The notes under the pieces were generated by a model. The model was not told the origin of the DNA. It did not search any database and worked only from the letters and a program-made list of their open reading frames with translations. A DNA stretch of 62,321 bases, counting the filler, from Candidatus Coatesbacteria bacterium (GTDB lineage: Bacteria > JAFGND01): the NCBI GenBank assembly GCA_016927185.1. It is 4 parts of 4 records of this genome, joined end to end, with 100 filler letters (N's around TTAATTAATTAA, not from the genome) between each part and the next. Parts side by side here need not be neighbours in the genome. Positions count along the whole stretch, not along the records: positions 1 to 30,420 come from JAFGND010000003.1; 3 more parts are not named here. One strand, written 5' to 3'. Positions 5,437 to 24,328 of the stretch are shown here, one piece after another (within the stretch, counting starts at the first letter, position 1; the number at the start of each line of letters is the position of its first letter). Position numbers and translations under genes: made by a program.

Positions 5437-6099
5437 AGAGTCTCACTATCTGAAAAAGAGAATCAGAATATCATGATGCATTCAGACACAAGAAGCAGAA
5501 TAATCCTGGAAGCCAGGATGCAATTTTTCACTTATGGCTTTTCCAAAGTAACTATTAATGAAATTATCGGGGAATTAGGCATTAGCAAAAAGACTATCTA
5601 CAAATATTTCCCAAGTAAGAAAGCTCTGTTATACGCAGCAATAGAAAGCAATTTCAGGGAAATTGAGGATAAGCTGACTGAGTTAGAAAATGACAAATCA
5701 CTAGATCCAATAGACAAAGTTATCAATGCTCTTCAGTACTTGACTTCAATGCTTTCTACTGTTAAACAACCTTACATGAAGGACATAATGAAGAGTGCAC
5801 CAGAAGCATGGGATTTGATTTCTGATTACAGAAAGAAAAGAATTTTTCCTGTATTCGAGAAATTTCTTCTTGAATGCTACAGGAGAAAAGCGATCAGGGA
5901 TGAAATAAACGGTGATTTACTTATAATGATATTTCTCAATTTCGCACAATATATACTGAATCCGCAAATTCTGAGTGAAATCCCCATGAGTATGCAGGAA
6001 ATATTTGAGAGTATTTATACAATACTGTTTGAAGGGATTCTGACAGATAATGCCAGAAGAAAATTCAAGAAAAAGCAATTATTCAAAAGGGATACATGA
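5428..6099 (+). CDS. TetR/AcrR family regulator (start may be 5473)
   Basis: GFSKVTINEIIGELGISKKTIYKYFPSKKAL helix-turn-helix. Confidence 0.9.
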   Translation: MVSRVSLSEKENQNIMMHSDTRSRIILEARMQFFTYGFSKVTINEIIGELGISKKTIYKYFPSKKALLYAAIESNFREIEDKLTELENDKSLDPIDKVINALQYLTSMLSTVKQPYMKDIMKSAPEAWDLISDYRKKRIFPVFEKFLLECYRRKAIRDEINGDLLIMIFLNFAQYILNPQILSEIPMSMQEIFESIYTILFEGILTDNARRKFKKKQLFKRDT

Positions 6100-8005: not shown

Positions 8006-8939
8006 AAGTGCAATTACAGTAAGAAATCTTTCAAAGAAATTCGGAAGTTTTATTGCTGTTGATGACATCAGTTTCGATGTCATGAAAGGTGAAATATTCG
8101 GATTTCTGGGAGCTAACGGAGCTGGAAAATCAACGACCATTAGAATGCTTATAGGTGTGCTCAGTATAGACAAGGGCGAAGTTATCGTTGGAGGATACGA
8201 TGTAGGGAGAAAGCCTGATACTGTTAAAGGAATAATCGGTTATATGTCTCAGAAATTCTCACTTTATACGGATCTCACTGTGGAAGAGAATTTGCATTTT
8301 TATGGAAGGACTTATGGTCTTGAAAAAGAAGAGATAAGCAAGAGAATATCTCAGGTATTAGCTACCATAAAACTCAATGGCAGGGAAAAGGCAAAAGCAG
8401 AAGAGCTCTCTGGTGGATTGAAACAAAGACTTGCTCTTGGTTGCTCTATAATACACAAACCTGAAATAATCTTCCTTGATGAACCTACAAGTGGAGTTGA
8501 CCCAATTTCAAGGAGAAATTTCTGGGAACTTATAAATAATCTTGTAGAAGATGGAACAACAGTTCTTGTCACTACCCACTTTCTTGAAGAAGCAGAATAC
8601 TGCAACAGGATTATGCTTATGCACTCTGGCAAACTGATCGCACAAGGGACGCCAAAACATCTGAAGCAAAATTCAATAAGGAATACAATTCTTGATATAG
8701 AAAGCAACAAGATTGTAGAAGCAATGGAATTATTGCAAAGACAGGATTGGATATCCGATGTTTCGATATTCGGAAGACATATACATATAAGTATAGATGA
8801 TGAAGAAAAAGCCAAGGAAAGAATTTATAAGCTATGTCAGTCAAGCAATATTGAAATAATCAATATCAGAAAGATAATGCCTTCATTAGAAGACGTATTT
8901 ATTCACCTTGTAGAGGAAAAAAATAGTCATGCATCATAG
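7995..8939 (+). CDS. ABC transporter ATP-binding protein
   Basis: GANGAGKST, LSGGLKQ, IFLDEPTSGVDP, TTH. Confidence 0.92.
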   Translation: MNNESAITVRNLSKKFGSFIAVDDISFDVMKGEIFGFLGANGAGKSTTIRMLIGVLSIDKGEVIVGGYDVGRKPDTVKGIIGYMSQKFSLYTDLTVEENLHFYGRTYGLEKEEISKRISQVLATIKLNGREKAKAEELSGGLKQRLALGCSIIHKPEIIFLDEPTSGVDPISRRNFWELINNLVEDGTTVLVTTHFLEEAEYCNRIMLMHSGKLIAQGTPKHLKQNSIRNTILDIESNKIVEAMELLQRQDWISDVSIFGRHIHISIDDEEKAKERIYKLCQSSNIEIINIRKIMPSLEDVFIHLVEEKNSHAS

Positions 8940-10056
8940 AATACTGGCAGTCTTGAAGAAAGAAATCAGGCAGATTTCAAGAGACAAGAGATCACTTGGT
9001 CTTCTTTTCTTCCTGCCTGCATTCATGCTTGTAATGTTTGGATATGCTCTCAACTTTGATGTCAAAAACATCCCTGTTGCCATTTGTGATAATGACAAAA
9101 GCGAAAAAAGCAAGGAATTCATAAGATACATCATTAACAATGAGTATTTCACATTCATGCATCTTCTGAAGAATGAAAAAGAAGCAGATAAACTACTCCA
9201 GACAGAAAAAGCCAAGGTAGTTATAATAATAAGCAAAGGTTTCTCCCAGAAAATCTTGTCTAGAACAGATACTTCTGTTCAGGTTCTGATTGATGGTTGC
9301 AATTCTACAACTGCATCAAATGCAATAGGTTATATAAATGCTATGTTTGCAGGTTTTCAAAACAAGATAATATCAAGGACTATTGATATAAATAGCAGTC
9401 AGACAATTGATTATGAACCAAGGGTATGGTACAATCCTGAGCTGAAAAGTGTGAATTTCCTGTTCCCTGGCTTGATTGCTTTCATTCTTGCAATAACTGC
9501 AGTCATATCAACATCTTTGTCAATAGTCCGTGAAAAAGAGCGTGGTTCAATGGAGCAGATCATAGTATCACCAGTCAGACCATGGGAACTGATAGTTGGT
9601 AAGACAATTCCTTATGTTTTCATCGCACTTGTTTCAACAAGCCTCATATTGACATCAGGTTACTTGCTATTTGACATATCAATAAAAGGGAGCTATCTTT
9701 TATTGCTGCTTGTTTCAATGTTGTTTCTTACAGGTTGCCTTGGGCAGGGGCTTCTTATATCCACATTCTCATCATCGCAGCAAGTAGCTTTCATGATTGC
9801 AGTCATCTCTACAATGCTGCCAACTTTCATACTTTCAGGTTTTGTTTTCCCCATAAGAAACATGCCATTGATAATACAAATTATAACCTATTTTATACCT
9901 GCAAAGTATTTCATTATAACATTGAGAAGTATTATTCTTAAGGGGGTAGGACTTGAGGCATTTTCAGAGCAGATATTATTCCTTTGTGGTTATGCTTCTT
10001 TCATGATAATTTTAAGTACATTAAGGCTTTCAAGCCAGCAGAAAAAAGGAATATGA
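8929..10056 (+). CDS. ABC-2 exporter permease (YbhS-like)
   Basis: WYNPELKS, REKERGSMEQ, LSGFVFPI; multiple TM helices. Confidence 0.88.
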   Translation: MHHRILAVLKKEIRQISRDKRSLGLLFFLPAFMLVMFGYALNFDVKNIPVAICDNDKSEKSKEFIRYIINNEYFTFMHLLKNEKEADKLLQTEKAKVVIIISKGFSQKILSRTDTSVQVLIDGCNSTTASNAIGYINAMFAGFQNKIISRTIDINSSQTIDYEPRVWYNPELKSVNFLFPGLIAFILAITAVISTSLSIVREKERGSMEQIIVSPVRPWELIVGKTIPYVFIALVSTSLILTSGYLLFDISIKGSYLLLLLVSMLFLTGCLGQGLLISTFSSSQQVAFMIAVISTMLPTFILSGFVFPIRNMPLIIQIITYFIPAKYFIITLRSIILKGVGLEAFSEQILFLCGYASFMIILSTLRLSSQQKKGI

Positions 10057-11183
10057 AAACTATACTGAACCTTATGAGGAAAGAATTCATACAATTCAAA
10101 AGAGACAAAAGAATGTTCTTGTTGAGTTTTTTCGCCCCTGTATTCCAGCTTTTGATACTTGCATATGCAGTAAATCTTGATGTAAAATCCATTCAGACAA
10201 TTGTTTGTGATATGGATAAAAGCGAGAAAAGCAGAGCTCTTTTATCCGAATTTTTCAGTTCCGGTTATTTTGACTGCATCGGATATACTGATAAATTGAA
10301 TGATGTTGATAAACATTTAAACAATAATAACGCTTCTATTGCGATTATTATACTATCTGGTTTCAGCAATAACCTCCTCTCAAAGAAGCAAGCAAAACTG
10401 CAGCTGATTATCGATGGTTCAGATTCAAATGCTGCTTCTATCGGTTTAAGCTATGCAACTATAATAATAACAAGGTTTTCAAGAAAAATATCAGCAGAAT
10501 ATAAAAATGCCGGGAAGAATTTTATGGAGAAAGGATTCACATTCTCTCCTGAGTTCAGAATCTGGTTTAATCCTGAGCTCAAGAGCAAGGATTTCATGAT
10601 CCCTGGAGTACTTGCCCTTCTTTTAATGGTTATGACCATGATTCTAACTTCACTTGCGATTGTTAAGGAAAAGGAATCAGGAACAATGGAACAGCTTATA
10701 GTTACCCCAATAAAACCTTATCATATAATTCTTGGAAAACTCCTGCCTTTTGCAGTTATTGGACTTATAGATGTAATCCTTGTGATATTCGTAGCAAGAT
10801 TCTGGTTTGACATACCATTAAAAGGAAGCTTCAGTTTGCTTTTGCTGCTTTGCTGTATCTTCCTTATGACAACACTTGGACTTGGTCTTCTCATATCAAC
10901 TTTTTCAAAGAATCAACAACAAGCAATGATAACAGCTATATTCTTCTTCATGGTTCCAATGGTTTTCCTGTCAGGTTTTGTTTTTCCAATTGAAAATATG
11001 CCTGATATAATACAATATATTACCTACCTTTTCCCATTGAGATATTTTTTTGTTATAATAAGGGGATTATTCCTTAAAGGCGCTGGAATAGCTGAACTCT
11101 GGGATGAAACAGTTGCATTGATAGTAATAGGGATAGTTATACTCTCTTTAAGCATTGCCAGATTTCACAAGAAACTGGAATAA
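10053..11183 (+). CDS. ABC-2 exporter permease (YbhR-like)
   Basis: ATG at 10053 overlaps the upstream TGA (ATGA); WFNPELKS, KEKESGTMEQL, LSGFVFPIENMP. Confidence 0.88.
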   Translation: MKTILNLMRKEFIQFKRDKRMFLLSFFAPVFQLLILAYAVNLDVKSIQTIVCDMDKSEKSRALLSEFFSSGYFDCIGYTDKLNDVDKHLNNNNASIAIIILSGFSNNLLSKKQAKLQLIIDGSDSNAASIGLSYATIIITRFSRKISAEYKNAGKNFMEKGFTFSPEFRIWFNPELKSKDFMIPGVLALLLMVMTMILTSLAIVKEKESGTMEQLIVTPIKPYHIILGKLLPFAVIGLIDVILVIFVARFWFDIPLKGSFSLLLLLCCIFLMTTLGLGLLISTFSKNQQQAMITAIFFFMVPMVFLSGFVFPIENMPDIIQYITYLFPLRYFFVIIRGLFLKGAGIAELWDETVALIVIGIVILSLSIARFHKKLE

Positions 11184-11218
11184 AAAAACCCGATCTTGCA
11201 GACCGGGTTTCTTTTTTT
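11182..11218. terminator. Bidirectional intrinsic terminator
   Basis: AAACCCGATC-ttgca-GACCGGGTTT hairpin flanked by A- and T-tracts, between convergent operons. Confidence 0.75.
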
Positions 11219-11233: not shown

Positions 11234-12316
11234 CTAGAATTCAAATCCTATAGAAATTCTATGAGGATTATCCATAAGTTCTGGTGCAAGATATTTGAAG
11301 TGAGTGAAAGAATAATCTACTTTTACCATCTTTCCACTCATGTCAAACATCAGACCGAAACCTGCTGAAAAATCATAGTCTGTATTTCTGCTTCCGCTGC
11401 TGTCACCAAATTCGGATGTACTGCCTTGTTCGTCTTCCTTCTTTTCATCTTCATCGTCATAGGTTGATGAAGTAAGGCAATATCCTCCTCTTACAAAGAA
11501 CATGTTCTTGAATCTGAATTCAGTCCCGAGCATGTATTGTTCATGACTGTCAGCTGGATGAAGCAGTTCTAATGCAGTCAAAACCTCGAAATCATTATGA
11601 GGAGTTTTGTCCCTTAATGATTCCTTTGGCAAGTTCCATTCCTTCATTATACCAAGGCGGAATGTGATTGGCATTGCTGCGGAATAAGCATCTGAAAACT
11701 CCTCTTTATCAAGATAGTTGACATTTGCTCCGAAATCCTTGATTGCCATTCCAATCCTGATATCCTTGAATCCTACCTTATAGGTTGTGCCAAGATCTGC
11801 TGTCCATGACTGGCCGCTAACATCATCAAGATATTCAGCGACATATTTGAATGTCAATCCTACAGCAAACTTATCTGTCAAATGACGGGCATATGAAAGA
11901 CCAACCATCATATCAGTAGCCTTGAACTTTGTACCGTCACCTTCAGAATGGAATACTGTTCTTCTGTCCATTTCAGGCATATAAAGCATTGAAGCGCTTA
12001 TGCCGAAAACACCTATATTTTTTACATCGTAAATTGCACCTATGAAATCATAATTAATATCTGCAAAATATTTCAAATGCGTTGCTGTAAAAGAGAATTT
12101 TTTCTCTTTTTCATGAAGTTCTGCGATCCCGGCAGGATTCCAATATAAGGAAATTGCATCATCAGCAGAAGCTACATAAGCGCAACCCATTGCTGTTGCT
12201 CTGGCTCCCATTCCTATTTCCAAAAATTGCATGGCTTGTTGTCCCGATTTGCTAAATCCAAATACAACTGCAGGAATTAGTAGGAGAACAATAATACTTA
12301 ACATTACTTTCTTCAT
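11234..12316 (-). CDS. PorV/PorQ-like (UPF0164) outer-membrane beta-barrel
   Basis: Signal peptide; FLEIGMGARATAMG..Y.A.ADD....YWNPAG signature; amphipathic strands; C-terminal HRISIGFEF ending in Phe. Confidence 0.8.
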   Translation of the reverse strand: MKKVMLSIIVLLLIPAVVFGFSKSGQQAMQFLEIGMGARATAMGCAYVASADDAISLYWNPAGIAELHEKEKKFSFTATHLKYFADINYDFIGAIYDVKNIGVFGISASMLYMPEMDRRTVFHSEGDGTKFKATDMMVGLSYARHLTDKFAVGLTFKYVAEYLDDVSGQSWTADLGTTYKVGFKDIRIGMAIKDFGANVNYLDKEEFSDAYSAAMPITFRLGIMKEWNLPKESLRDKTPHNDFEVLTALELLHPADSHEQYMLGTEFRFKNMFFVRGGYCLTSSTYDDEDEKKEDEQGSTSEFGDSSGSRNTDYDFSAGFGLMFDMSGKMVKVDYSFTHFKYLAPELMDNPHRISIGFEF

Positions 12317-12331
12317 GTCCTCTCCTCCTTC

Positions 12332-14464
12332 CTATCTAATAATGACAATTTTGCCGACTTTTTTGCCGGGTGTATCACTTGACAACGACTCAACTGCCCA
12401 CAAATAAATGCCTGATGAAACTGCAATTTTATTCATATTCATTAGATCCCATTGAGCAACAGTATTCTTTGCCAATACTTCATCATGCTTGATTTTTCTT
12501 ATCAACTCTCCTGAGAGAGTAAAGATGCGTATTATGCATTTCTTTGGAAGATTGCAGAAAACAACTCTTCTTCCATATTCTGTGTATTCTGCTTCAAATC
12601 CGTCATTTCTATATTTCAGATCAGCTCTGTACGGATTTGGGAACACATATACATCTTCAATTGCTGTGGTATGTTCATTACCAGGGACAACAGCTGTCGC
12701 GTTCTCTGTTACTGAACATTCTAATGGATCAACTGACTGGTTTTCTCCCAGATTTTCATCTCCATAACCCCAATCATATGCAGTTACTGAGTAATAATAC
12801 TGGAAACCATTAAGCACTGGCTGATCAACCAGATAATATTTGCCATCTTTCATTGGTGGTTTGTTGGTTCCCCATTTTCCTTTATTCTTCTTGTTCTGGT
12901 AAGTATATTCTGTGTTCATTTCCATCTGATAGGTTGCCAGTAGCTGGAAATCGGTTAGCAAGCCTGTTCTTGAGCGCCAGACTCTATATCCCTTGAAGTC
13001 AGCTATATTCGTAATAGGGTCTTTTGATGATTCCGAAGAATTATCCCAGAAAATTTCCACCTTTTTGTTGCCACCATTTAATGCAAGTCCTGGTGCCTTA
13101 GGAGGTTGAGGACCTATATAATTATTATCATAAATATCTTTTGCCCATTTTGCGTTTTCAACAAGATGTAATCTGTTCAAGCCGCAAATAACAGCAACTG
13201 TAATGGCAAGTTTATCTCCCTTTTTGATGTCATTAAATTCTCCGTAGGAAATAAGAAATCTGGTGTCATCTGGTACCATCTGTTTTTCATTACTCCATTT
13301 CTCTTTTCCTTCTTCTGTCTTGGAACCTTCATCAAAAAAGTCATTCTGTCCATTGGATAGTCTTCTATATTTCTCTCCATCACCCATTGGTGATTCATCA
13401 TTATTGGCAGCACCAGAAGAATCAGATATCCACCAGTTCCAGCAAGTTACAAGCGAATCGCCTTTGAGGCCTACTGTTCCGTTTCCCTTGTTCTTTTCTT
13501 CCAAAGGATTGCCAACAACGAATGCCGAGATTAAAGTTGTGGTGTGCCATCCATCATTGTATTGAGATTCTCCTGTATACTCCCAGTAGCCTTTTGGCCA
13601 GTTGGGATCATTTGCTCCACCACCTGGATCAGCATCCTGGATTAAGCCTAACTTAAGCACTTTCTTGTTTCCGTAAGCATCGTTATATTCTTCCTGCCAG
13701 AAACCAGCTACGTCATCTTGTGCCGGACCATTATAGTTCGTATTCCAGTTCGGTCCTGTATCTGCATCAACATATAATCCAAGCCATCCCTTTGTCAAAA
13801 CAAATGAACTACCATCCTGGAAACCTTCATTCATTATTTCGAAGTGAACCAGAACAAAGTCATCATTAAATGAGTATGACCATGCATAAGATGACTGGAT
13901 AACCTTTACGCCCTGGGGCTGATGTTCTGCACCAGAGATATCCTGATCATCAAAGTATTCTGCTATAAAGTCCTGTTCTGATATTGCAGTTGAATCATAA
14001 AACTCTGATGACTGTCTTGTTGATTTTATCTTGATTGTGTCACCAGGATCTGTACCTGGATAAAATTCCTGGTAATCTGAATTAGATGAGTTCAACCATC
14101 CATCTAATCCAGTTGAAACCAAAGTTTCGCGTTTGCTTGCGGCTTCTTTTACAATAGAGCCAATCCATAATCCACTTTGAAACAAATACTCAAGATCTGA
14201 ATTTGCTGGGTATTCGCATGATGGATAATAAGGCATCGAGTTCTTGTCAGGATTTCCAACAAATCCCCAGTTTGTTACAGTAAGCCAGATATTACCAACA
14301 TCATGATATTGATAATCAGTCGTAGGGGCATCTCCCCCAACTCTATTATTAAACTTCCAGCTGAAAATTCCTTTTCCTGTAGTATATGGTGCGTTTCTAG
14401 CGGACAAAGGTAATGTTAGGAGAATTGTTATTAAAACAATTACTCCAATCAATTTATAAGTCAT
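12332..14464 (-). CDS. Large secreted protein: unknown N-terminal domain, FN3-like module, T9SS/FlgD-like CTD
   Basis: ATG at 14464 with GGAGGTG RBS; signal peptide; PPKAP...FWDNSSE...DFKGYRVWRS...YYYSVTAYD (FN3-like); C-terminal VFPNPY...IRIFTLSGELI...WD...SSGIY...GKIVIIR. Confidence 0.75.
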   Translation of the reverse strand: MTYKLIGVIVLITILLTLPLSARNAPYTTGKGIFSWKFNNRVGGDAPTTDYQYHDVGNIWLTVTNWGFVGNPDKNSMPYYPSCEYPANSDLEYLFQSGLWIGSIVKEAASKRETLVSTGLDGWLNSSNSDYQEFYPGTDPGDTIKIKSTRQSSEFYDSTAISEQDFIAEYFDDQDISGAEHQPQGVKVIQSSYAWSYSFNDDFVLVHFEIMNEGFQDGSSFVLTKGWLGLYVDADTGPNWNTNYNGPAQDDVAGFWQEEYNDAYGNKKVLKLGLIQDADPGGGANDPNWPKGYWEYTGESQYNDGWHTTTLISAFVVGNPLEEKNKGNGTVGLKGDSLVTCWNWWISDSSGAANNDESPMGDGEKYRRLSNGQNDFFDEGSKTEEGKEKWSNEKQMVPDDTRFLISYGEFNDIKKGDKLAITVAVICGLNRLHLVENAKWAKDIYDNNYIGPQPPKAPGLALNGGNKKVEIFWDNSSESSKDPITNIADFKGYRVWRSRTGLLTDFQLLATYQMEMNTEYTYQNKKNKGKWGTNKPPMKDGKYYLVDQPVLNGFQYYYSVTAYDWGYGDENLGENQSVDPLECSVTENATAVVPGNEHTTAIEDVYVFPNPYRADLKYRNDGFEAEYTEYGRRVVFCNLPKKCIIRIFTLSGELIRKIKHDEVLAKNTVAQWDLMNMNKIAVSSGIYLWAVESLSSDTPGKKVGKIVIIR

Positions 14465-14533
14465 ATTTACACCTCCATTTTGCCTTTTACTATTAAATAA
14501 GTTTAACAAACTCCCTCCCTTCATATATTTTAA

Positions 14534-15205
14534 TTATTTTATCAACTTCCAATCAACTATATAGGTGAACTGAAATGGATATGGCTTCCCACCAAATGTA
14601 TATGGCCTGAAAGTGGATGCCTTTATGGCAGTAATTGCAGCCTGATCACATTCATTGTCACCACTTGGTTTTATAATCTGTACTTTGTCAACCTTTCCGT
14701 CGCCTCCAACTGTTATCAATATAACAGTCTGCCCTTCAAATCCTCTTGCTGCTGCTGCAGCTGGGTATCTGGGTTTCACCTTGTTCAATATTCTTGCTTG
14801 TCCTTCAGAAGGTGGTACAAGCTTAGGTTTCTGCACAGGTGGTTTTGCGTCTTTCTTGTCATCACCTTTGTTCAGATCAACAGTGCTTTTAGAGCCCTGA
14901 TCGCTGATATCATCTGCTGAAATCTTCGGACCATCTCCTGTTACCTTAAGCTCAACATTCTGTTTAGGGATGTCTTTGACATCGATTTTTTCCTCCTCAG
15001 GTGGAGGCGGGATATTATAATCCTCAGTTTTCACATTCTCTATTGAGATACTTTTTCTCTGCATTGGAATATATGGTCTGGTTTCCATTGGAGGCCATAA
15101 AACCCAAGCAATTCCATGAATTGAGATTGAAACTAAAGCGGCAAGAAGAGCAATCCTGTTTCTTCTTTTCTTCAGTTTTTGATTTGCATTCATTTCCTCA
15201 TTCAT
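14534..15205 (-). CDS. tonB: Energy transducer TonB
   Basis: N-terminal TM with SxxxH (SISIHG); Pro-rich linker; KPRYPAAA...GFEG C-terminal domain. Confidence 0.85.
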   Translation of the reverse strand: MNEEMNANQKLKKRRNRIALLAALVSISIHGIAWVLWPPMETRPYIPMQRKSISIENVKTEDYNIPPPPEEEKIDVKDIPKQNVELKVTGDGPKISADDISDQGSKSTVDLNKGDDKKDAKPPVQKPKLVPPSEGQARILNKVKPRYPAAAAARGFEGQTVILITVGGDGKVDKVQIIKPSGDNECDQAAITAIKASTFRPYTFGGKPYPFQFTYIVDWKLIK

Positions 15206-15216
15206 AAGAACACCTC

Positions 15217-15648
15217 CTATTCGGGACCTTTTTTAGCATTACTTATAAAAAACACACGATTTGTGTGTGCTTTGCGCAACATTTCCAATACACTGTTAAC
15301 ATCTTTGTAAGGTGTCTTTTCATCTACATTCATTGCAACAGAAAGAGCTGGATTTTTATCTCTTTTCTTCTGCATTATGCCTAATACATCTTCATAATCT
15401 TTTATTTCAGCATCATTTATCACAGTCAATGCAGTTTTCTTTGCTCCAGCTAAAGGTGCCATCCAGATTCTTGCTGTATTCTCTCTTTCCGTTTTTGTAC
15501 CTTGTTCTGTATCAGGATAAACAACTTCTAGTCCTGCTTCATCCTTCAATATGGTTGTTGTCATGAAAAATATCAATAGCAAGAAAGCTATATCTGCCAT
15601 CGATGATGTTGGAATTTTTCCTGCAGATTTCTTCTTTTCAATTCTCAT
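15217..15648 (-). CDS. exbD: Biopolymer transport protein ExbD
   Basis: SMADIAFLLLIFFMTTT TM with the conserved Asp. Confidence 0.88.
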   Translation of the reverse strand: MRIEKKKSAGKIPTSSMADIAFLLLIFFMTTTILKDEAGLEVVYPDTEQGTKTERENTARIWMAPLAGAKKTALTVINDAEIKDYEDVLGIMQKKRDKNPALSVAMNVDEKTPYKDVNSVLEMLRKAHTNRVFFISNAKKGPE

Positions 15649-15654
15649 ATATCC

Positions 15655-16134
15655 TCACTCGATTTCTTCATCAAGAATTCTAATAGCATATTTCTGTATC
15701 CCTGCCATTTTCAGTTGATCAAGAACCTTTACCATTGGACCATATGGATCGTCAGGTTTGGTTCTAACCATGAAAACAGATTTTGGCTTTCTTTCAAGCC
15801 ACAATTTCACTTCTGTTCCTACTTCCTTTATAGGAAATACTCTTTTGTTTGGTATAGTGGCATCCTTAGATGCAAAAGTAATCATTTTCACTTTGAAATC
15901 ATTTGCAGCATCTGATCCGGTCATTACTATATCCAGTACTGCCATTTCAGATCTGTCTTCCAGTACTGCTGCTTTCTCTTGCGTTTCAGATGGTGGCAAG
16001 TCAAGCAAGATGCCACTTTCTATATCAAAAACTGTTGTTGCCAAAAAGAATATAAGCAACAGGAATGCTATATCTGAGGTTGAGGCTAAAGGTATATCTC
16101 CAGCCACCCGTTTAACTCTGTTTTTCATCAACAT
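15655..16134 (-). CDS. exbD: Biopolymer transport protein ExbD (second paralog)
   Basis: STSDIAFLLLIFFLATT; YGPMVKVLDQLK. Confidence 0.85.
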   Translation of the reverse strand: MLMKNRVKRVAGDIPLASTSDIAFLLLIFFLATTVFDIESGILLDLPPSETQEKAAVLEDRSEMAVLDIVMTGSDAANDFKVKMITFASKDATIPNKRVFPIKEVGTEVKLWLERKPKSVFMVRTKPDDPYGPMVKVLDQLKMAGIQKYAIRILDEEIE

Positions 16135-16150
16135 TTTATTATCCTATACC

Positions 16151-16948
16151 TTATTCTTCCTCTTCAGCACCACGAACAAGCAGTATTTCTTCCATATCAG
16201 AAGCTGCTTCTTCAATTGCTACTACAAATTTATCAATGCGAGATAGACACAAATTCTGTACTGCCTGTACAGGAATTGCTATCATCAAGCCTGCTGCTGT
16301 TGTAATCAATGCTTCTGAAATACCTGATGCAACAATCTGCGGTTTTACCTGACCTGCAAGAGCTATTGCATCAAAGGCATTTATCATACCAGAAACTGTT
16401 CCCAAAAATCCTATCAATGGTGCAATATTGACTACAGAAGAAAGAGCTACCAAGCCACGTTCAAGAAATGATAATTCAATTCCTGCTCTTGTTTCCATTG
16501 CTTTTGTTGCTGCATCCAGGCCAAGAAGTGTTGCCTTGTAAAGACCACTCTTGAATACTGCTGCAACAGGTCCGGGATATTTATCGCATACCTTGCCAGC
16601 TTTATCTACTGCAGCATCAAGTTCTATCGATTTGTCTAGCAATGTATCTTTTATCTCCTTGCGAAAAGCAGTTTGATCAATGTCCAGCATTACAAACAAA
16701 ACAATAAAACGTTCAATCGAAAATATCAAACCTACAATAGAGCAAATCAAGAGACCCCACATGAAGAATCCACCTTGTTGCCACAAGTCTCTCAAGGTTT
16801 TGGTTTTTGCTGCCGTTTTTTCTTCCTGCTTTTGTTCTTTCTTTTCAGTTGTAGCTTCTTTCTTAGGATCCTCAGCCAAAAGATTAGATGTAAACACCAT
16901 GAAAAGGCATAGCACAAGCATCCATGTTACCAGTTTCCACATCCTCAT
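16151..16948 (-). CDS. exbB: MotA/TolQ/ExbB proton channel protein
   Basis: ATG at 16948 with GGAGGT RBS; APLIGFLGTVSGMI, GISEALITTAAGL. Confidence 0.88.
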   Translation of the reverse strand: MRMWKLVTWMLVLCLFMVFTSNLLAEDPKKEATTEKKEQKQEEKTAAKTKTLRDLWQQGGFFMWGLLICSIVGLIFSIERFIVLFVMLDIDQTAFRKEIKDTLLDKSIELDAAVDKAGKVCDKYPGPVAAVFKSGLYKATLLGLDAATKAMETRAGIELSFLERGLVALSSVVNIAPLIGFLGTVSGMINAFDAIALAGQVKPQIVASGISEALITTAAGLMIAIPVQAVQNLCLSRIDKFVVAIEEAASDMEEILLVRGAEEEE

Positions 16949-17006
16949 TGTCTTAATACCTCCGTATATAAAGCCGCTGCACATGCAACGGCTACTTGTT
17001 TATCTT

Positions 17007-19745
17007 TTACCATTCTAAGCTCATACCTATCTGTAATTGACGACGACCCATGAAACGCATTGGATGCAGCTTATTCCATAAGAAGTCTTCCTGATATGCA
17101 TCAGTTGGATCCCAGGCTTTCCCAGTATTTGCATTGACTTCAGCAGTATTAGTCTGGTCAAAGATGTTATAACCTTCAAGGAATAAACGATAATTCATAC
17201 CAAGAAATGCAACACCTTTATAAACCATCATATTTACAATAGAAGTCCATGGCATTCTTCTTGAATTCTCTTCAGGATATTTCTCGCCTGTTGCAAATGT
17301 GCTAGGAGTATAAGGATAACCACTTCCATATTCCCATGAAAGTGATATGCCCCATAAATCAGGGAATTTGACACCTAAGACTTTAGGACGCATCCCCTTT
17401 TGTGCTGAAAGAGATAAATTCAAGTTAACTGTATGACGCTGATCCCAATCAAGAGCTTGCTCTTTTACAGGATTAGGCAGATTATTGTATGCATTGTCAT
17501 AACCCTGTCTGCTATCGCTACTATTACCCATTGCCCATGATAATGAGTATGAAATAAATCCTGCCACGTAATTGCTGTAACGTTTGTTTAATGATAACTC
17601 AAAACCACGAACGCTACCAAAGTCCCTGTTTACATATTCAGTATATGTAAATGGAGGATCAACAACTTTTTCTGTATCAATCAAGTCCTTGATATCCTTG
17701 TAAAAACCTGTCAATCCAATCATTACGTTTTCAGAGAACTGATGTTCAAGACCTGCTTCATATGAAGTGGTCTTTTCGGGACGCAGATTCGGATTTCCAA
17801 GCAATGGAACTGAACCTGTTATATCGCGACTTCTATAAAGAAGTGTGAAATCAGGAATTTCAGTGTAATGACCATACGCAAAACGCAAGATGTCATTTTC
17901 AGTTATGGGGTGGCTTACACCAACTCTTGGAGAAAGCGTCCACTGATATTCGTCTTCCAGTACTGGAACTTCCTGTCCTCCACTGGTTTCTGTCATTTTG
18001 GCAAGCTGTTTTCCAGGAGTATAAATATCAAAACGCAATCCTGCATTAACAATCATGCCTTCATATTCCATTTTATCCTGAAGATAATATGCACCTGCCC
18101 ATGGAGTACGGAAATAGAATTCCCTGTATTGTCCGTATTCCGGCCATTCACCGGGTACTTCTCTTCCAGGGGTAAATTGCATCAAGTCTACATATTTATA
18201 ATCAAGCTCATAATAGTTACCTTCTAAACCGGTACGCATTGTATGAGACCATGAATCTGTAGATTTTCCCTTGCTTTTCGTAAATTCCTTAGTTAAATCC
18301 CATCTTGCTGAATAAGTCGTTGAGATAGTTTTCAGCCATAATTCATTGTCTCCGGAACATTCAAAACCTTCAACTGATGAGAATGCTCTGCTTCCCTGAT
18401 CGGGCAGTATATATTCTGGAGGTATTTTTCCATCGACATCATAGATGAATTTTGTATTGAAACGACCCAGAATTACATTATAATAAGCAGAACCACTAGC
18501 CAGGCTATGTGTCCAGTTAATAGTCTGCTGATCACTCCAGCGTCTGCCTGTATAGGTATGAAGTGCAGCCCAGTATTCCTCGCTTGCATATCTACCATTT
18601 GGCAGTGAATCTCCTGGTTCATAGTGCTGTGTCCATAAATAACCAGCACCCTGGCTTGTTGGTCTATATGAGTTAAATGATTTGCGGTAACCAAGAGTTA
18701 ATGTATGTTTTGGAGTGAATTTCCAGAGTAATTTCGCATTACCAGAAGTTGTATTGTTTGCCCTGTCACCAACTGTGAAAGGACCTATTTTATATCTGTT
18801 TCTTGGATATGGATACATTGTCCATAAACGACCATCATTCCATTCTCCGGTGAAACTAGCGAAATAAGTGAAACGATCTGCAATGCCAATCTTCTTCATC
18901 CATGCACTTAAAAATGGGAATGGTCCTCCATCAGATATCTCAATTCTGTCTGAATTGTAATAATTATGTCCATTGTACATATCCTGTCCACCAAAACCGA
19001 AATCATCTGTCTGGAATGAAATCTCTCCATGATTTCTGTCTCCACCTGTCTTGGTGACAACATTCACTATACCAGATTGTGCATTTCCATACTCAGCACC
19101 GAATCCACCTGAAGAAACAGAGACTTCATTGATTGAGTTTGTACCCAATTCAAGATTTGTTCCTCCTGTTGTCTGTAATGGATCCTTGACGGACATTCCA
19201 TCAATCAGATAAGTAATTTCTCCTGCACGGCCACCACGCAAGCGAAGCTCTCCTCCCTGAGTTGTCGCTCCTGCTTGTTTGGAAACAACATCAGCAAGAT
19301 CTGTTACCATAGGCTGGTCTTTTATATCTTCATCACGAACTTGTCTTACTGTTTCTGTCCTGTCTTTTACAACCATCTTGGGTTTATAGACAACAATTTC
19401 ATGAATTGCAGAACCGGACCCTGCACTTCTCAATGTAAAATTGACTGTGACAGTACGGTCTGCTGAAACCTGAACTCCACTTTGTGATGATTTAGTTCTT
19501 TGTGGTGCTGTTGCTGTTACAGTATAAACTCCAACAGGAACACCAACTATAGAAAAACGTCCATTTGGACCGGTTATTGCTGCATCCTCATATTCACCTG
19601 ATTTAACAGAAACATAAGCACCGGCAACAGGTCCACTGCTATCAGTTACAACACCAGTTATTTTACCTTCACTACTGGCAAAAAGCAAGCCAGTTACAAA
19701 AATCGTAAGTCCAAAAACTATCAATAAGGACTTTCTAAAATTCAT
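17007..19745 (-). CDS. TonB-dependent outer-membrane receptor with N-terminal carboxypeptidase-regulatory-like domain
   Basis: GKITGVVTD N-domain; plug RGGRAGEITYLIDG and GGFGAEYGNAQSGIVNVVTK; GNPNLRPEKT; C-terminal aromatic residue (SLEW). Confidence 0.9.
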   Translation of the reverse strand: MNFRKSLLIVFGLTIFVTGLLFASSEGKITGVVTDSSGPVAGAYVSVKSGEYEDAAITGPNGRFSIVGVPVGVYTVTATAPQRTKSSQSGVQVSADRTVTVNFTLRSAGSGSAIHEIVVYKPKMVVKDRTETVRQVRDEDIKDQPMVTDLADVVSKQAGATTQGGELRLRGGRAGEITYLIDGMSVKDPLQTTGGTNLELGTNSINEVSVSSGGFGAEYGNAQSGIVNVVTKTGGDRNHGEISFQTDDFGFGGQDMYNGHNYYNSDRIEISDGGPFPFLSAWMKKIGIADRFTYFASFTGEWNDGRLWTMYPYPRNRYKIGPFTVGDRANNTTSGNAKLLWKFTPKHTLTLGYRKSFNSYRPTSQGAGYLWTQHYEPGDSLPNGRYASEEYWAALHTYTGRRWSDQQTINWTHSLASGSAYYNVILGRFNTKFIYDVDGKIPPEYILPDQGSRAFSSVEGFECSGDNELWLKTISTTYSARWDLTKEFTKSKGKSTDSWSHTMRTGLEGNYYELDYKYVDLMQFTPGREVPGEWPEYGQYREFYFRTPWAGAYYLQDKMEYEGMIVNAGLRFDIYTPGKQLAKMTETSGGQEVPVLEDEYQWTLSPRVGVSHPITENDILRFAYGHYTEIPDFTLLYRSRDITGSVPLLGNPNLRPEKTTSYEAGLEHQFSENVMIGLTGFYKDIKDLIDTEKVVDPPFTYTEYVNRDFGSVRGFELSLNKRYSNYVAGFISYSLSWAMGNSSDSRQGYDNAYNNLPNPVKEQALDWDQRHTVNLNLSLSAQKGMRPKVLGVKFPDLWGISLSWEYGSGYPYTPSTFATGEKYPEENSRRMPWTSIVNMMVYKGVAFLGMNYRLFLEGYNIFDQTNTAEVNANTGKAWDPTDAYQEDFLWNKLHPMRFMGRRQLQIGMSLEW

Positions 19746-19975
19746 AATCTCCCCTTTCTACCTGAGTTAAACACCATAATAATGTCAGGTTCAGGCAACA
19801 CCTCCTAATTCTATAATATTCATTTTTTCCACAAATATTCCAGGCAATATAGTTTGCCTTTCTGAATTAAACTCTGTCGGATAAGGGAAAAAAATTAAGC
19901 TTTAATGTCAACTATTTTCTGAATTATTTTTAAGAATCTATTGACAAATTGCCTAAAGCCATTTTACGTACTGCC

Positions 19976-21394: not shown

Positions 21395-22788
21395 TGGCTG
21401 AACAAACAAGAAAACAGTTAGAACCAAATAGCCTGGATGCCGAGAAAGCTATACTGGGAGCAATGCTTCTTGACAGGGAAGCGATAAGCAAGGTTTTGGA
21501 GAAACTCACTCAAAAGAGTTTTTACTTTTCTGCTCATAAGGAAATATTTGAAGTAGCATCAGAGCTTCATGACAAGGGGATAGAAGTTGATATTATTACT
21601 GTAGGACAGGCTCTTCAGGACAAGAATATACTTGATAAAACTGGAGGATTGGAGTATCTGACAGAAATTTCCAATATGCCTGTAACTTCTTCCAATTTAA
21701 GAGATTATATACAAATTGCCGAAGAAAAGGAATTATACAGAAACCTTATACATGATTCAAGTGAGGTTATGAAAAAGGCACTGAATCAAGAAGTTCCAGT
21801 AGAGGAGCTTCTTGAGGAAGCTGAAAAAAACATATTCGGATTAGCTGAAAGAAGATTCAGGACAGGTTTTGTACCAATAGAGAAACTTATAGGTCCAACT
21901 CTTGAAGATATAGAAAGACACACCTTTTCTGAACACAAGTTAAGTGGTATTCCGACAGGATTCAATGGACTGGATAACCTGCTTGGGGGATTGCAGAATG
22001 CAAACCTTATAGTAATAGGAGCAAGACCTGGAGGTGGGAAAACAGCTTTTGCTTTGAATATTGCTTTGAATGCAAGTCTTATTAATCATCCTGTTGGTGT
22101 CTTCTCTCTTGAAATGTCATCACAGCAACTGCTAAAAAGATTGCTTTCTGCTCATTCAAGAGTGAGTATTTTCGATCTTCAGAGAGGTGAAGTTCATCAT
22201 GAAAAACTGGAGATCGTTCATGGTGCAGTCAATGAACTTGTGAAAACACCTGTTTTCATTGATGATACTTTCGATTTGACGCTTCTTGAAATGAAAAGCA
22301 AGGCAAGAATTCTTAAAGCCGAAAAAAATGTTAAATTACTAATAGTTGATTATCTTCAGCTATTGACTCCTTCCAATCCCAAAGGTGACAAAGCAAGATA
22401 TCAGGAAATAGGAGAAATGACAAGAGCTTTAAAGGGTCTGTCAAAAGAGCTTAATATCCCGATTGTTGCCCTGTCACAGCTTAGCAGGGAAACAGAGAAA
22501 CTTGAACGTCCCCCCAAATTATCTGATTTAAGGGAATCTGGTTCTATTGAACAGGATGCAGATGTAGTGATTTTTCTTCATATGGAAAGTACAAGAAAAA
22601 AGAAAACAGAAGGCTCTGAAGAGGAGGAAGAAATCGAAGAAGTAATGGACAATTATCTTGTTCCAATACAGATTATAGTAGCAAAACAGAGAAATGGTCC
22701 TACTGGAACAATAAAGCTGATTTTCAACAAACAATGCTCCAGATTTGATCAAATATTACAGGGAAGTGAAGATGAACCAGCTTTCTAG
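21394..22788 (+). CDS. dnaB: Replicative DNA helicase
   Basis: ARPGGGKT, FSLEMS, VDYLQL, LSQLSR, SDLRESGSIEQDAD, AKQRNGPTG; TAATG coupling to gmk. Confidence 0.95.
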   Translation: MAEQTRKQLEPNSLDAEKAILGAMLLDREAISKVLEKLTQKSFYFSAHKEIFEVASELHDKGIEVDIITVGQALQDKNILDKTGGLEYLTEISNMPVTSSNLRDYIQIAEEKELYRNLIHDSSEVMKKALNQEVPVEELLEEAEKNIFGLAERRFRTGFVPIEKLIGPTLEDIERHTFSEHKLSGIPTGFNGLDNLLGGLQNANLIVIGARPGGGKTAFALNIALNASLINHPVGVFSLEMSSQQLLKRLLSAHSRVSIFDLQRGEVHHEKLEIVHGAVNELVKTPVFIDDTFDLTLLEMKSKARILKAEKNVKLLIVDYLQLLTPSNPKGDKARYQEIGEMTRALKGLSKELNIPIVALSQLSRETEKLERPPKLSDLRESGSIEQDADVVIFLHMESTRKKKTEGSEEEEEIEEVMDNYLVPIQIIVAKQRNGPTGTIKLIFNKQCSRFDQILQGSEDEPAF

Positions 22789-24328
22789 AAAGACAAGATT
22801 GTTTTTTCTTTTAATTATCATCCTTAATTCATCATGTCTTAGTGGTGGCAAGAAAAGTGAAGAGAGGAGTTTGGATAAAAACCCAAATAAAAGGAAGTAT
22901 AATATGGAAATTGATGATGTTCTTGCAGGGAGATGGTATACAGCTAATCCGAAAGACTTGAAAGAGGAGCTTCAGAAATATCTGGATGGAACTGATACAA
23001 TTTCATTCAATAATGAGGTTAAAATCGGTCTTGTTCCGCATGCAGGACTTATATATTCAGGACCAGTTGCTGCATATACTTATAAGGCAGCAAGCAAAAG
23101 AAAAATAGATACAGTAATAATTCTGGGCTTCTTTCACAGGATTTTCTATGACAAGATCTTTCTGCTGCCTGGCGGTATTGTCAAGACACCTTTGGGAGAT
23201 ATAGAAATTGATGAAGATATTTCCGGAAAAATCAGCAAGATCTGTTCTAAATTTGCTTATGACAGCTCCGTTTTAAGGAAATTGAACTCTGAGGGTGAGA
23301 ATTCCCTTGAGCTTAATTTTCCTTTCATTAAGCATGTATTTCCAGATGCAAAAATAGTCCCGATATATTATGCCCAGAATGATTATCAAACACTTATTGA
23401 ATCAGCAAATGCAATTGCCACCATCCTGAAAGAAAGCAATAAGGAAATTCTCTTGATAGTCAGCTCAGATCTTTCCCATTTCAACAATTCAAAAGTAGCT
23501 GATTCACTTGACAATATTACCCTGGAAGGTATATTATCTGAAGACCCCAAAGTATGGAATATAAAATGTGCCAATTCGCAGGGTGCTTGTGGCAAGGATC
23601 CTATAACAGTAGCAAAACTGATATCCCAGTTGCTGGGATACAAGTCGCTATTACTCAAGCATTCCCATAGTGGTAAAGTGAGTGGAGATAATTCTCAGGT
23701 AGTTGGTTATGGAAGCATAATATGGACTGGTGAAAAATTGGAAAAAAAGACTGCTGAAAAAGGAGCTATAGAGGTTTCAGATGAACTGAAAACCAGGATG
23801 CTGTCTTATGTAAGGAAAAGCATAAATGAATATGTCAAGAATGGAAAGAAAATAAAGATAGACGACCAGGAAGATATCTGGAACAAAAATCTTGGATTGT
23901 TTGTAACCTTGAAAAAGGCTGGAAATCTTAGAGGTTGTATTGGTTATATAGAAGGTTATCAGGCACTGAGAAATTCCCTGGTGGATCTTTCCATAGCAGC
24001 ATCTACAAAAGACCCAAGATTCGAACCAATCAACAAGGATGAGATAGACTCTCTTCATATAGAGATTTCCATTTTATCCCCGATATATGATGTAAATGAT
24101 GTAAAAGAAATAAAAGTGGGACGCGATGGAATAATTATAAAGAAAGGATTTTACCAGGGTTTGCTGCTTCCACAAGTTGCAACTGAATATGGATGGGATC
24201 TTGAGACATTTCTGGAGCATACTTGTGAGAAAGCAGGATTATCATCTGATTCATGGAAGGATAAGAAAACTCAAATAAAACGTTTTTCCGCAACAATTTT
24301 TCAGGAAAAAGAAGGAGGAAAAAAATGA
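22772..24328 (+). CDS. MEMO1 (AmmeMemoRadiSam B) plus AMMECR1 (AmmeMemoRadiSam A) fusion with lipoprotein-type signal
   Basis: Signal ending LNSSC; AGRWY, PHAGLIYSG, SSDLSH, CG, VVGYG (MEMO); FVTL...LRGCIG, DPRF, LLLPQVA, KAGL (AMMECR1). Confidence 0.85.
   Translation: MNQLSRKTRLFFLLIIILNSSCLSGGKKSEERSLDKNPNKRKYNMEIDDVLAGRWYTANPKDLKEELQKYLDGTDTISFNNEVKIGLVPHAGLIYSGPVAAYTYKAASKRKIDTVIILGFFHRIFYDKIFLLPGGIVKTPLGDIEIDEDISGKISKICSKFAYDSSVLRKLNSEGENSLELNFPFIKHVFPDAKIVPIYYAQNDYQTLIESANAIATILKESNKEILLIVSSDLSHFNNSKVADSLDNITLEGILSEDPKVWNIKCANSQGACGKDPITVAKLISQLLGYKSLLLKHSHSGKVSGDNSQVVGYGSIIWTGEKLEKKTAEKGAIEVSDELKTRMLSYVRKSINEYVKNGKKIKIDDQEDIWNKNLGLFVTLKKAGNLRGCIGYIEGYQALRNSLVDLSIAASTKDPRFEPINKDEIDSLHIEISILSPIYDVNDVKEIKVGRDGIIIKKGFYQGLLLPQVATEYGWDLETFLEHTCEKAGLSSDSWKDKKTQIKRFSATIFQEKEGGKK

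Follow-up and report, generated by a model that had tools for sequence, protein, structure and literature searches.

Seven co-oriented genes on the minus strand of a Candidatus Coatesbacteria genome (GCA_016927185.1; positions 11234-19745 of the window, the whole stretch of 62,321 nucleotides that was analysed) form an operon whose products are a TonB-dependent receptor, ExbB, two ExbD, TonB, a secreted protein of 710 amino acids (hereafter P730) and an outer-membrane barrel of the PorV/PorQ family. We lean towards the idea that this operon builds an outer-membrane unit for the capture and import of nutrients, in which the barrel would keep P730 at the cell surface, close to the receptor. An earlier note on this DNA had described the operon and proposed a related role; its observation is confirmed as a whole, its interpretation is partly supported.

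The ORF check of the stretch recovers all the seven genes listed in that note, intact and tightly spaced (22, 16, 6, 11, 69 and 15 nt). The single terminator that it placed at the end of the operon is also there, as a hairpin with a T run. This bidirectional intrinsic terminator (11178-11214, no strand assigned) has its hairpin between an A run and the T run; the 15-bp stem-loop (11182-11214) has a dG of -18.7 kcal/mol and a z-score of -3.86, and none of 200 shuffled sequences folds as well. A simple consensus scan did not pick it up. The terminator separates the P730/receptor operon from a convergent ABC-2 transporter operon. On the other side, the intergenic region at 19746-19948 (minus strand) carries the ribosome-binding site of the receptor gene, as read from the sequence. 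No Rfam family was matched on the contig of the operon. Contigs from independent DNA runs span the junction between the genes of the barrel and of P730, and likewise the TonB/ExbD/ExbD/ExbB junctions, which shows that this part of the gene order is not an artefact of one assembly; near-identical DNA recurs in sequencing runs of several studies.

The receptor gene (17007-19745, minus strand) codes for a protein of 912 residues which comprises a signal peptide, a CarboxypepD_reg-type N-terminal extension (residues 29-106, 59.5 bits), a plug (127-225; PF07715, 35.8 bits for a cut-off of 23.9) and a barrel (363-861; PF00593, 102.7 bits for a cut-off of 27). According to these matches, the combination of a plug and a 22-strand-type barrel is that of a TonB-dependent transporter. 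A candidate TonB box, HEIVVY (residues 114-119), lines up with EVVVVG, the consensus of the family, a match at the level of the motif only, and the receptor family retains this TonB-box-like element downstream of the N-terminal extension. The SusC/RagA model TIGR04056 (cut-off 368.25 bits) is absent from the receptor's matches at E<=0.01, and the NCBIfam receptor models give only partial, sub-threshold matches; the receptor of a relative (L046) matches TIGR04056 over its first 207 positions only, with 73.6 bits. No SusD family of Pfam or NCBIfam is hit by any of the seven operon products.

The energiser genes follow on the same strand: ExbB (MotA/TolQ/ExbB proton channel, 277 aa, 16151-16984; PF01618, MotA_ExbB, 99.3 bits), two ExbD paralogues of 159 aa (15655-16134; PF02472, 59.1 bits) and 143 aa (15217-15648; PF02472, 61.9 bits), which match each other only at E ~4e-9, and TonB (223 aa, 14534-15205), with a C-terminal TonB_C domain (PF03544, 64.9 bits; TIGR01352, 55.2 bits). 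All the Pfam models are above their curated cut-offs. The motor had been called dedicated. Its four genes do lie in the operon, but the dedication is doubtful: the genome has five Plug-domain receptors and this sole ExbB/ExbD set with TonB adjoining, and Ton genes occur in none of the 79 related loci (taken from the best 80 of 599 confirmed stretches). Counting those of the operon, the genome has three TonB_C genes and only two MotA/ExbB-family genes. This motor is probably the general Ton system of the cell, and not private to the receptor of the operon.

P730 is encoded at 12332-14464 (minus strand). Its long reading frame (12332-14524) has an ATG at 14464 with a Shine-Dalgarno sequence, GGAGGT, 6 nt upstream, and no GGAGGT-like site ahead of the ATG at 14524. 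From these signals, translation most likely starts at 14464; this start and an identical database copy (P0004) both give 710 residues, the length of about 710 that had been announced. Residue numbers are counted here from the upstream ATG, 14524. The protein has a signal or transmembrane helix (residues 22-40), and its full length matches no Pfam or NCBIfam model. It is a member of a large unnamed family (2,218 cluster representatives at E<=1e-30), whose named relatives are all annotated as "hypothetical protein".

The structure model of P730 (pLDDT 74, pTM 0.70) has three parts. Residues 66-471 (13112-14329, minus strand) form a super-sandwich which resembles galactose mutarotase and the N-domain of glucoamylase: VIA-align returns 1lf6_A (Z 20.2, rmsd 2.8, 233 residues aligned) and 1ulv_A (Z 19.6), followed by the N-domains of GH65, GH94 and GH116 and by a stand-alone GH174 fucanase, while the Foldseek TM is just 0.27. 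Its conserved polar residues are N85, C103, E104, S182, Q184, D185 and D192. This fold is also found in non-sugar settings, such as the periplasmic domain of YidC. The second part (residues 475-600; 12725-13102, minus strand) is a beta-sandwich with FN3 matches in Foldseek, and bears the family motif DF(E/K)GYR(I/V)(Y/W)RS. The third part (residues 620-730; 12335-12667, minus strand) is a C-terminal domain of the T9SS sorting type. The last 122 residues match the C-terminus of PorZ (E 1e-9) and that of PorU (E 3.4e-5), the only PDB match of the family profile is the PorU tail 6za2_A (E 0.034), and the motifs PNPY, G..Y and K are invariant. The T9SS-like C-terminal domain of the earlier note is therefore real, but divergent, since it remains below the cut-offs of PF18962 (Por_Secre_tail, 18.0 bits for 27) and TIGR04183 (12.1 bits for 23); by these local matches and motifs it is a divergent relative of the type A sorting domain, closest to the tails of PorZ and PorU. 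P730 is not PorZ itself: only the last ~92 positions of the PorZ model NF052228 are matched (37.5 bits, cut-off 260), a full-length match being absent, and the N-terminal fold is a super-sandwich, not propellers.

The last gene (11234-12316, minus strand) encodes a 14-strand-type barrel of 360 aa, which scores 188.5 bits over the full length of the PorV/PorQ family model NF033709 (cut-off 90). It is neither PorV proper (NF033710, 72.2 bits, cut-off 250), nor PorQ proper (NF033711, 101.4 bits, cut-off 220), nor PorV2 (NF052325, 79.9 bits, cut-off 325), being below all three equivalog cut-offs. Its profile matches the solved PorV 6h3i_F (E 4.6e-27), in line with the PorV-like identity given in the earlier note, and this homology led us to reject a generic FadL channel.

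Co-folding of the P730 tail with the barrel, one part of the three-protein model that the earlier note had proposed, gives a predicted interface with scores of 0.86, 0.87 and 0.86, against 0.00 for the best of three controls; at least 78% of the contacts are common to the runs, and the partner pLDDT is at least 75. The mark used is reached by 116 of 157 solved complexes and by 2 of 215 mismatched pairs. The tail is thus predicted to dock in the operon's own barrel, with high confidence against the controls, although complexes of PorV with cargo have been solved (6h3i and the 8gl series), so that this pass may reflect memory of them, or likeness to them, rather than the binding of this pair.

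In the attachment complex of Porphyromonas gingivalis, PorQ carries PorZ and PorV carries PorU, and the tails of both surface proteins are retained. It is by analogy with these two pairs that we infer that the tail of P730 stays in its barrel. A co-fold looks the same whether the binding is transient or permanent, and PorV itself is described as a substrate-binding shuttle in PMC12578637. It could then be that the barrel is merely a cargo-specific shuttle, which takes P730 from SprA to PorU, where the protein loses its tail and then, as ordinary cargo does, is either released or attached to lipopolysaccharide, the genes being neighbours of the receptor gene through a common substrate and not through one protein complex. 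The two PorU sortases of the genome and the usual type A motifs of the tail agree with this. We consider it unlikely, however: the tail of P730 resembles the retained ones more closely than it does the general cargo model, most loci show translational coupling between the genes of the barrel and of the receptor, and a private shuttle seems unnecessary since contig C75 already carries a housekeeping PorV-like gene, which scores 161.8 bits with the PorV model.

The genome search suggested in the earlier note finds the SprA translocon and the two PorU, all above cut-off in the profile search. Besides the gene on C75, separate genes code for a PorQ-like protein (contig C26) and a PorZ-like protein (C32); those on C75 and C26 are better PorV-like and PorQ-like matches than the barrel of the operon. 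P730 and its barrel are therefore an extra, private pair. None of the five other PorV-family genes of the genome adjoins a receptor gene. The same search did not find genes for a PorL/M/N-type T9SS motor or ring, for which the models are Bacteroidota-trained: the GldL, GldM and GldN models have no match in this genome (93% complete), their controls being silent in every reference genome, and GldK gives FGE-domain matches only. Among 60 other genomes sampled, SprA is present in all 10 that have matches to the N-domain of P730, compared with 20 of 60 overall.

The lack of detected PorL/M/N, and the Ton genes inside the operon, are what one would expect if the receptor-like barrel worked outwards or in biogenesis, in a Ton-energised export or assembly of P730 or other T9SS cargo, an alternative already raised in the earlier note. 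The models would be Oar of Myxococcus xanthus, a TonB-dependent transporter required for the secretion of the protease PopC according to PMC6434023, and PorF of P. gingivalis (PG0534), tabulated among the T9SS components as of TonB-dependent receptor type, with role unknown, in the extracts of PMC5445135 and PMC8754138. Beyond the Oar/PopC precedent, this proposal gained no support here, and we regard it as highly improbable: the genome has SprA as a dedicated translocon, the receptor does not depart from ordinary importers in its plug, candidate TonB box and N-terminal extension, and none of the related loci contains Ton genes. Many of the Bacteroidota among these loci have complete T9SS motors.

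The neighbourhood survey proposed in the earlier note bears out the association of the three genes. The related loci were located with the FN3-domain motif, and 40 of the 79 have at least 9 kb of flank on each side. In 34 of these 40, receptor (T) and barrel (V) homologues accompany the P730 homologue (P) on one strand, in the orders P-T-V (26 loci), T-V-P (4), T-P-V (3), which is that of the window, and V-P-T (1); in the other six, the receptor is at the edge of the fetched DNA (3), only the barrel is found (2), or neither (1). The trio is spread from Bacteroidota to Zixibacteria, WOR-3 and Gemmatimonadota, and some genomes contain several copies of the module. Receptor and barrel genes adjoin in 42 loci, with a gap of -11 to +4 nt in 26 of them. 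Over 42 loci and the window, the patristic distances correlate (receptor-P730 r 0.92, receptor-barrel 0.90, barrel-P730 0.79), as the co-phylogeny idea of the earlier note would have it, and L018 and L021 are the window's nearest neighbours in all three trees; the comparison covers the three families themselves, and shared species descent alone could give such correlations. Members of the P730 family also occur away from the module: 6 of the 12 regions fetched around P730 paralogues in five other genomes contain neither a receptor nor a barrel. We found no description of the module in the literature.

Related loci usually encode further proteins. A conserved lipoprotein, with FN3 and a GATase1-like fold and not the SusD fold, is encoded in 51-53 of the 79, and most also encode an NHL-repeat protein; both are missing from the operon. 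The name SusD-free, used in the earlier note, is therefore literally true, but it hides the fact that a non-SusD lipoprotein is usual elsewhere. These two proteins could be the true surface partners of the receptor. A divergent lipoprotein homologue of 689 aa is encoded on contig C20 (HMM E 1.5e-22), and the loci L018 and L021 have the trio with no Ton genes in between. It may be, in this light, that the operon is a reduced remnant, from which the lipoprotein and NHL-repeat subunits were lost or displaced and into which a rearrangement brought Ton genes, so that seven genes are co-transcribed yet do not make a full machine. This appears improbable to us, considering that the seven frames are intact and tightly spaced, that near-identical DNA recurs across studies, and that the lipoprotein gene is also detached, several genes away, in L018 and L021.

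In the import unit that we favour, P730 would leave the cell through Sec and then through the cell's type IX secretion system; its PorZ/PorU-like tail would stay lodged in the operon's own barrel, which would keep the super-sandwich and FN3 domains at the cell surface. There, P730 may bind or trim a substrate, for which a glycan or glycoconjugate is the likeliest candidate, and hand it to the adjacent receptor, which would import it, driven by the co-transcribed ExbB-ExbD-ExbD-TonB motor.

Bacteroidota take up large nutrients mainly through TonB-dependent transporters with surface partners, and those partners that are known are, to our knowledge, lipoproteins. Tentatively, and with less confidence than for the import unit, we suggest that PorV-family barrels might be modular sockets which plug T9SS-secreted proteins onto TonB-dependent transporters in the FCB superphylum. 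The module would then stand, in many phyla, as an ancient counterpart to the SusC/SusD utilisome that does without a lipoprotein, and the window would hold its minimal form, one transcript that covers receptor, socket, partner and motor. If this is true, a partner delivered by the T9SS and held by a PorV-like barrel is a second way to build uptake machines, PorV paralogues gain a role outside secretion proper, and it helps to explain how nutrients are captured in phyla known almost only from metagenomes, such as Zixibacteria, WOR-3, Marinimicrobia, Ignavibacteria and Gemmatimonadota.

Several known systems resemble parts of this arrangement. The module shares with SusC/SusD (RagA/RagB) utilisomes the TonB-dependent transporter, its CarboxypepD_reg-type extension and EVVVVG-like candidate TonB box, the co-encoded surface protein of carbohydrate-binding type and the multiple copies in some genomes. 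The operon differs in having no SusD-family gene and a receptor that falls short of TIGR04056, and P730 has, in place of a lipid anchor, a T9SS-type tail and a private PorV-like barrel; the lipoprotein of related loci does not have the SusD fold either. The PorQ-PorZ and PorV-PorU pairs also associate a barrel of the PorV/PorQ family with a surface protein, and have the tails nearest to that of P730, whose binding in the barrel is predicted. Beyond the tail, no domain is shared, P730 having neither propellers nor a C25 peptidase; the genome has separate genes resembling all four proteins, and the P730/barrel pair is tied to a TonB-dependent receptor, contrary to the attachment complex.

Oar has a carboxypeptidase-regulatory-like N-terminal domain. 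As a TonB-dependent barrel with a functional link to a secreted protein (PMC6434023), it can be set beside the receptor by description, but its system lacks a T9SS, a PorV-like barrel and a CTD. As described in PMC12578637, BamG, of the Bacteroidota BAM, is a 14-strand barrel of the FadL/PorV superfamily which acts as a fixed platform for a surface-exposed protein, BamH, beside a larger barrel. In that account, the hold on BamH, a lipoprotein, is through its N-terminus and not through a T9SS tail, and the larger barrel is BamA in place of a transporter; by its scores, the barrel of the window goes with the PorV/PorQ family, not with BamG. The DNA-utilisation locus ddbABCDEF of Bacteroides thetaiotaomicron comprises a SusD-less TonB-dependent transporter, a non-SusD surface partner and secreted enzymes (PMC12478041, excerpt). 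These are points of likeness, but the partner, DdbD, is a DUF5689 lipoprotein unlike P730, and the excerpt mentions no PorV-like barrel and no T9SS tails. The operon contains no nuclease-like gene, whereas weak matches to nuclease families are found near the Bacteroidota form of the module.

Seven ORFs follow one another on the minus strand from 19745 to 11234, with intergenic gaps of 6 to 69 nt, and six of them are identified by family scans above curated cut-offs: a TonB-dependent receptor of 912 aa (17007–19745), with a CarboxypepD_reg-type N-terminal extension, a plug and a barrel; ExbB; two ExbD paralogues, whose mutual match is only E about 4e-9; TonB; and a PorV/PorQ-family barrel of 360 aa (11234–12316; NF033709, 188.5 bits for a cut-off of 90). 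The remaining ORF (12332–14464) codes for the secreted protein that we call P730. A strong hairpin (dG −18.7 kcal/mol, z −3.86), bordered by an A run and a T run, closes the operon at its 3' end. This bidirectional terminator is common to the operon and to a convergent, efflux-type ABC-2 transporter operon (5428–11183), which encodes a TetR regulator, an HlyD-type adaptor, two ABC ATPases and two ABC-2 permeases. A consensus scan of the sequence returned promoter-like sites no more often than in shuffles, and the same scan overlooked the terminator. An Rfam search of the contig matched no family, and hence gave no riboswitch clue to the ligand.

Bases 1–30420 of the window are a single contig (C59) and the remainder is made up of further contigs, with runs of N between them (30421–30520, 49015–49114 and 55921–56020), so that only 1–30420 is contiguous with the operon. 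Contigs from independent DNA runs, two of which are biogas-fermenter metagenomes of one study, span the stretch, mostly at 95–99% identity or better, and bridge the barrel/P730 and TonB/ExbD/ExbD/ExbB junctions. There is no RNA run among the sequencing runs listed for the stretch, and the one RNA run compared with it yielded no contigs.

The P730 ORF has two candidate starts, at 14524 and 14464, of which only the ATG at 14464 has a ribosome-binding site, with GGAGGT lying 6 nt before it; an identical database copy is 710 aa long. We number residues from the upstream ATG. The whole protein matches nothing in Pfam and NCBIfam, and phmmer finds no paralogue of it in the genome. The structure predicted from 36 relatives (pLDDT 74, pTM 0.70) comprises a signal or membrane helix, a super-sandwich of roughly 400 residues (66–471), an FN3-like domain and a C-terminal beta-sandwich. 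Foldseek against the PDB gives low TM scores only (the best, 0.27, for a GH116 N-domain and FN3 arrays). Naming the fold required an exhaustive VIA search, in which the super-sandwich resembles the N-domains of glucoamylase and glucodextranase (1lf6_A, Z 20.2, rmsd 2.8 over 233 residues; 1ulv_A, Z 19.6). GH65, GH94 and GH116 N-domains, aldose epimerases and the stand-alone GH174 fucanase align with it as well. P730 belongs to a large family that has no name: cluster representatives number 13,637 at E ≤ 1e-3, 6,956 at 1e-10 and 2,218 at 1e-30, all source names given for the 184 word-indexed relatives are "hypothetical protein", and the 30 nearest Atlas clusters are all hypothetical proteins without a family.

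The last 122 residues of P730 match the PorZ and PorU models at their C-termini (E 1e-9 and 3.4e-5, respectively), whereas matches to general T9SS cargo models are below the cut-offs; the one PDB match of the family profile is the tail of PorU (E 0.034). A search of the genome (a bin of 2.99 Mb in 109 contigs, 93% complete) for T9SS genes, proposed in the earlier note, succeeds in part. It finds SprA (406 bits over one frame), two PorU (561 and 557 bits), a PorV-like gene (C75:17162-18112), a PorQ-like gene (C26:6026-6889) and a PorZ-like gene on contig C32, the SprA, PorU and PorZ-like set lying at C3:12888-17366, C32:23070-26288 and C12:20078-23218. For PorK/L/M/N, the GldK/L/M/N models and Pfam GldM_1st, which were trained on Bacteroidota, give nothing convincing, and they are silent in all reference genomes too, so that this result does not speak for absence of these genes; the GldK model picks up FGE-sulfatase domains only. 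The genome also encodes many proteins with cargo tails. In 60 comparison genomes, which are kin at the domain level only, any match to P730 occurs in 18, of which 17 have SprA; matches to its N-terminal domain occur in 10, all of which have SprA, vs 20 of the 60 overall. These genomes are kin and not independent, and the co-occurrence of P730 with SprA is only a supportive count.

The earlier note proposed that the PorV-like barrel holds the tail of P730 at the cell surface. The barrel is a clear homologue of PorV (6h3i_F, E 4.6e-27), as that note had assumed, and the interface is predicted by a controlled co-fold of barrel residues 21–360 with tail residues 605–730, each with its own alignment: the scores are 0.86, 0.87 and 0.86, vs 0.00 for the best of three controls. 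The runs have at least 78% of their contacts in common, with a partner pLDDT of at least 75, and the mark is attained by 116 of 157 solved complexes and by 2 of 215 mismatched pairs. PorV–cargo complexes have already been solved, so this result may reflect likeness to those structures. The barrel and the tail thus resemble a PorV–tail pair, and their binding is predicted. None of the five other PorV-family genes of the genome adjoins a receptor gene, which suggests that the barrel and the tail protein of the operon are an additional, private pair.

On balance, we favor the reading that the operon is an import unit, which is the best supported. P730 would be exported via Sec and then the T9SS, and its tail would stay lodged in the private PorV/PorQ-type barrel; the tails of PorZ and PorU are likewise retained, on PorQ and PorV, respectively. 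P730 would then bind or trim a glycan-like substrate and pass it to the receptor, energized by the Ton motor. It may also be, with a distinctly lower probability, that the barrel is merely a cargo-specific shuttle. In 12 regions around P730 paralogues, from five other genomes, receptor and barrel are both present in five, the receptor only in one and neither in six; the last six indicate that the super-sandwich/FN3/tail architecture also occurs in free-standing cargo. In one of these genomes (L139–L142, on contigs C6, C1 and C5 of genome G019), the paralogues are single or paired, the pairs being placed end to end or separated by a few kb, and neither a receptor nor a PorV-like barrel is encoded within about 8 kb.

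The trio formed by the receptor, P730 and the barrel recurs in other genomes. A scan of one genome per species gave at least 599 confirmed relatives of P730, and we analyzed the loci of the best 79. They come from Bacteroidota (Flavobacteriales, Chitinophagales, Cytophagia), Rhodothermales, Ignavibacteria, Calditrichota, Marinimicrobia/Fidelibacterota, WOR-3, Gemmatimonadota, Eisenbacteria and Stahlbacteria, and 78 of these best 79 have an intact P730 homologue. Among the species recovered by the scan are the cultured carriers Acidiluteibacter ferrifornacis S-15 and Rubrivirga sp. IMCC43871. The presence of the trio was scored with profiles built from the first matches. The earlier note mentioned such triads in FCB-affiliated lineages. 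On the same strand, a receptor and a PorV-like barrel of the types seen in the window are found in 34 of the 40 loci that have 9 kb or more on each side; among the other six, the receptor falls at the extreme end of the retrieved DNA in three, only the barrel is present in two, and neither in one. Both occur in 12 of the 38 loci with shorter flanks. With T for the receptor, P for P730 and V for the barrel, the gene orders in the 40 full-flank loci are P-x-x-T-V (26), T-V-x-P (4) and T-P-V, as in the window (3). The receptor gene adjoins the barrel gene in 42 related loci, with a gap of −11 to +4 nt in 26 of them. A six-gene Bacteroidota form of the module is observed in loci L046 and L033.

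The co-phylogeny check suggested in the earlier note gives correlated distances. Over 42 loci and the window, the patristic distances of the three families correlate pairwise (r 0.90, 0.92 and 0.79), and the nearest neighbors of the window are L018 and L021 in all three trees. This fits descent as a unit, or a shared species history, the comparison being confined to the three families. In L018 (5503–6903) and L021, a gene for a 466-aa BamG/FadL-like barrel (NF053685, 65.8 bits, below the cut-off) lies just upstream of the receptor gene; it has no counterpart in the window.

The earlier note described the system as SusD-free. This is literally true, but 51–53 of the 79 related loci (including L023:11745-13136 and L046:14372-15799) encode a conserved lipoprotein of 400–520 aa, from an unnamed family and of a fold that is presumably unlike that of SusD. 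A lipobox-like motif is present in 35 of 45 family members, and in the model (pLDDT 87) two FN3/Ig domains accompany one that is GATase1/ThuA-like (5xb7_A, Z 16.6, rmsd 2.9 over 190 residues). In other lineages, the lipoprotein could be the receptor cap, rather than the tail protein. An NHL-repeat protein is also matched in related loci (31 and 11 loci by two queries), as is a further tail-bearing protein (44–45 loci). All three are missing from the operon of the window, and we consider it improbable that the operon is what reduction has left of a larger machine. Elsewhere in the genome (C20:649-2718), a divergent lipoprotein homologue of 689 aa (E 1.5e-22) lies beside a tail-bearing beta-propeller protein. 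Ignavibacteria and Bacteroidota loci encode a tail-bearing protein beside the P730 homologue (L033:12021-13916 and L046:12135-14321); one such protein has a weak CBM56 match (28.7 bits) and the other matches an ExeM/NucH nuclease model in the N-terminal part of the model, which may be read as mixed hints on the substrate.

The earlier note called the motor dedicated, which it probably is not. The genome has five Plug-domain receptors, two MotA/ExbB genes and three TonB_C genes. The second ExbB-like gene (C5:1178-8939) has two ExbD-like neighbors and, upstream, genes for a 568-aa protein of unknown type and a 1,452-aa TPR/YbgF-like protein; neither a TonB nor a TolA gene is adjacent, so the ExbB–ExbD–TonB cluster of the window is the only complete one, and it probably serves all five receptors. 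The C5 genes may make up a Tol-like system or some other 5:2 motor system. No homologue of ExbB, ExbD or TonB is found in the 79 related loci (the best 79 of at least 599), which suggests that the embedding of Ton genes in the operon is particular to the host lineage. On another contig (C53:48139-50337), an unusually long TonB/TolA-like protein of 732 aa ends in a TonB_C domain; its N-terminal half is rich in repeats, and it also has a long, charged linker and a membrane helix in mid-protein.

The import reading is to be set against an outward or biogenesis role for the receptor-like barrel, akin to the TonB-energized export raised in the earlier note. This would rest on analogy to Oar/PopC (PMC6434023) and to PorF/PG0534 (PMC5445135 and PMC8754138), and we regard it as very unlikely. 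All parts of the module are from known families, and their combination appears to be new: full-text searches on PorV with TonB-dependent receptors or transporters, on T9SS with SusD outside Bacteroidota and on PorV in the relevant phyla, subscription journals being outside this scope, gave no description of it. The literature that joins "PorV-like" and "TonB-dependent transporter" concerns the BAM complex of Bacteroidota, in which the FadL-like barrel BamG anchors a surface lipoprotein (PMC12578637). The ddb DNA-utilization locus is likewise SusD-less, yet it is a different system: the partner is DUF5689 and the available sections of the paper mention no PorV-like barrel (PMC12478041), so that we ruled it out as the same system.

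No database protein is more than 49% identical to the DnaB of the genome, an indication that the host is a deep, poorly sampled lineage. The same contig also carries a single ORF of 527 aa (22745–24328) that combines a Memo-like domain with an AMMECR1 domain, and two neighboring large ORFs (24734–28023; 460 and 608 aa) with weak FG-GAP and RHS-repeat matches.
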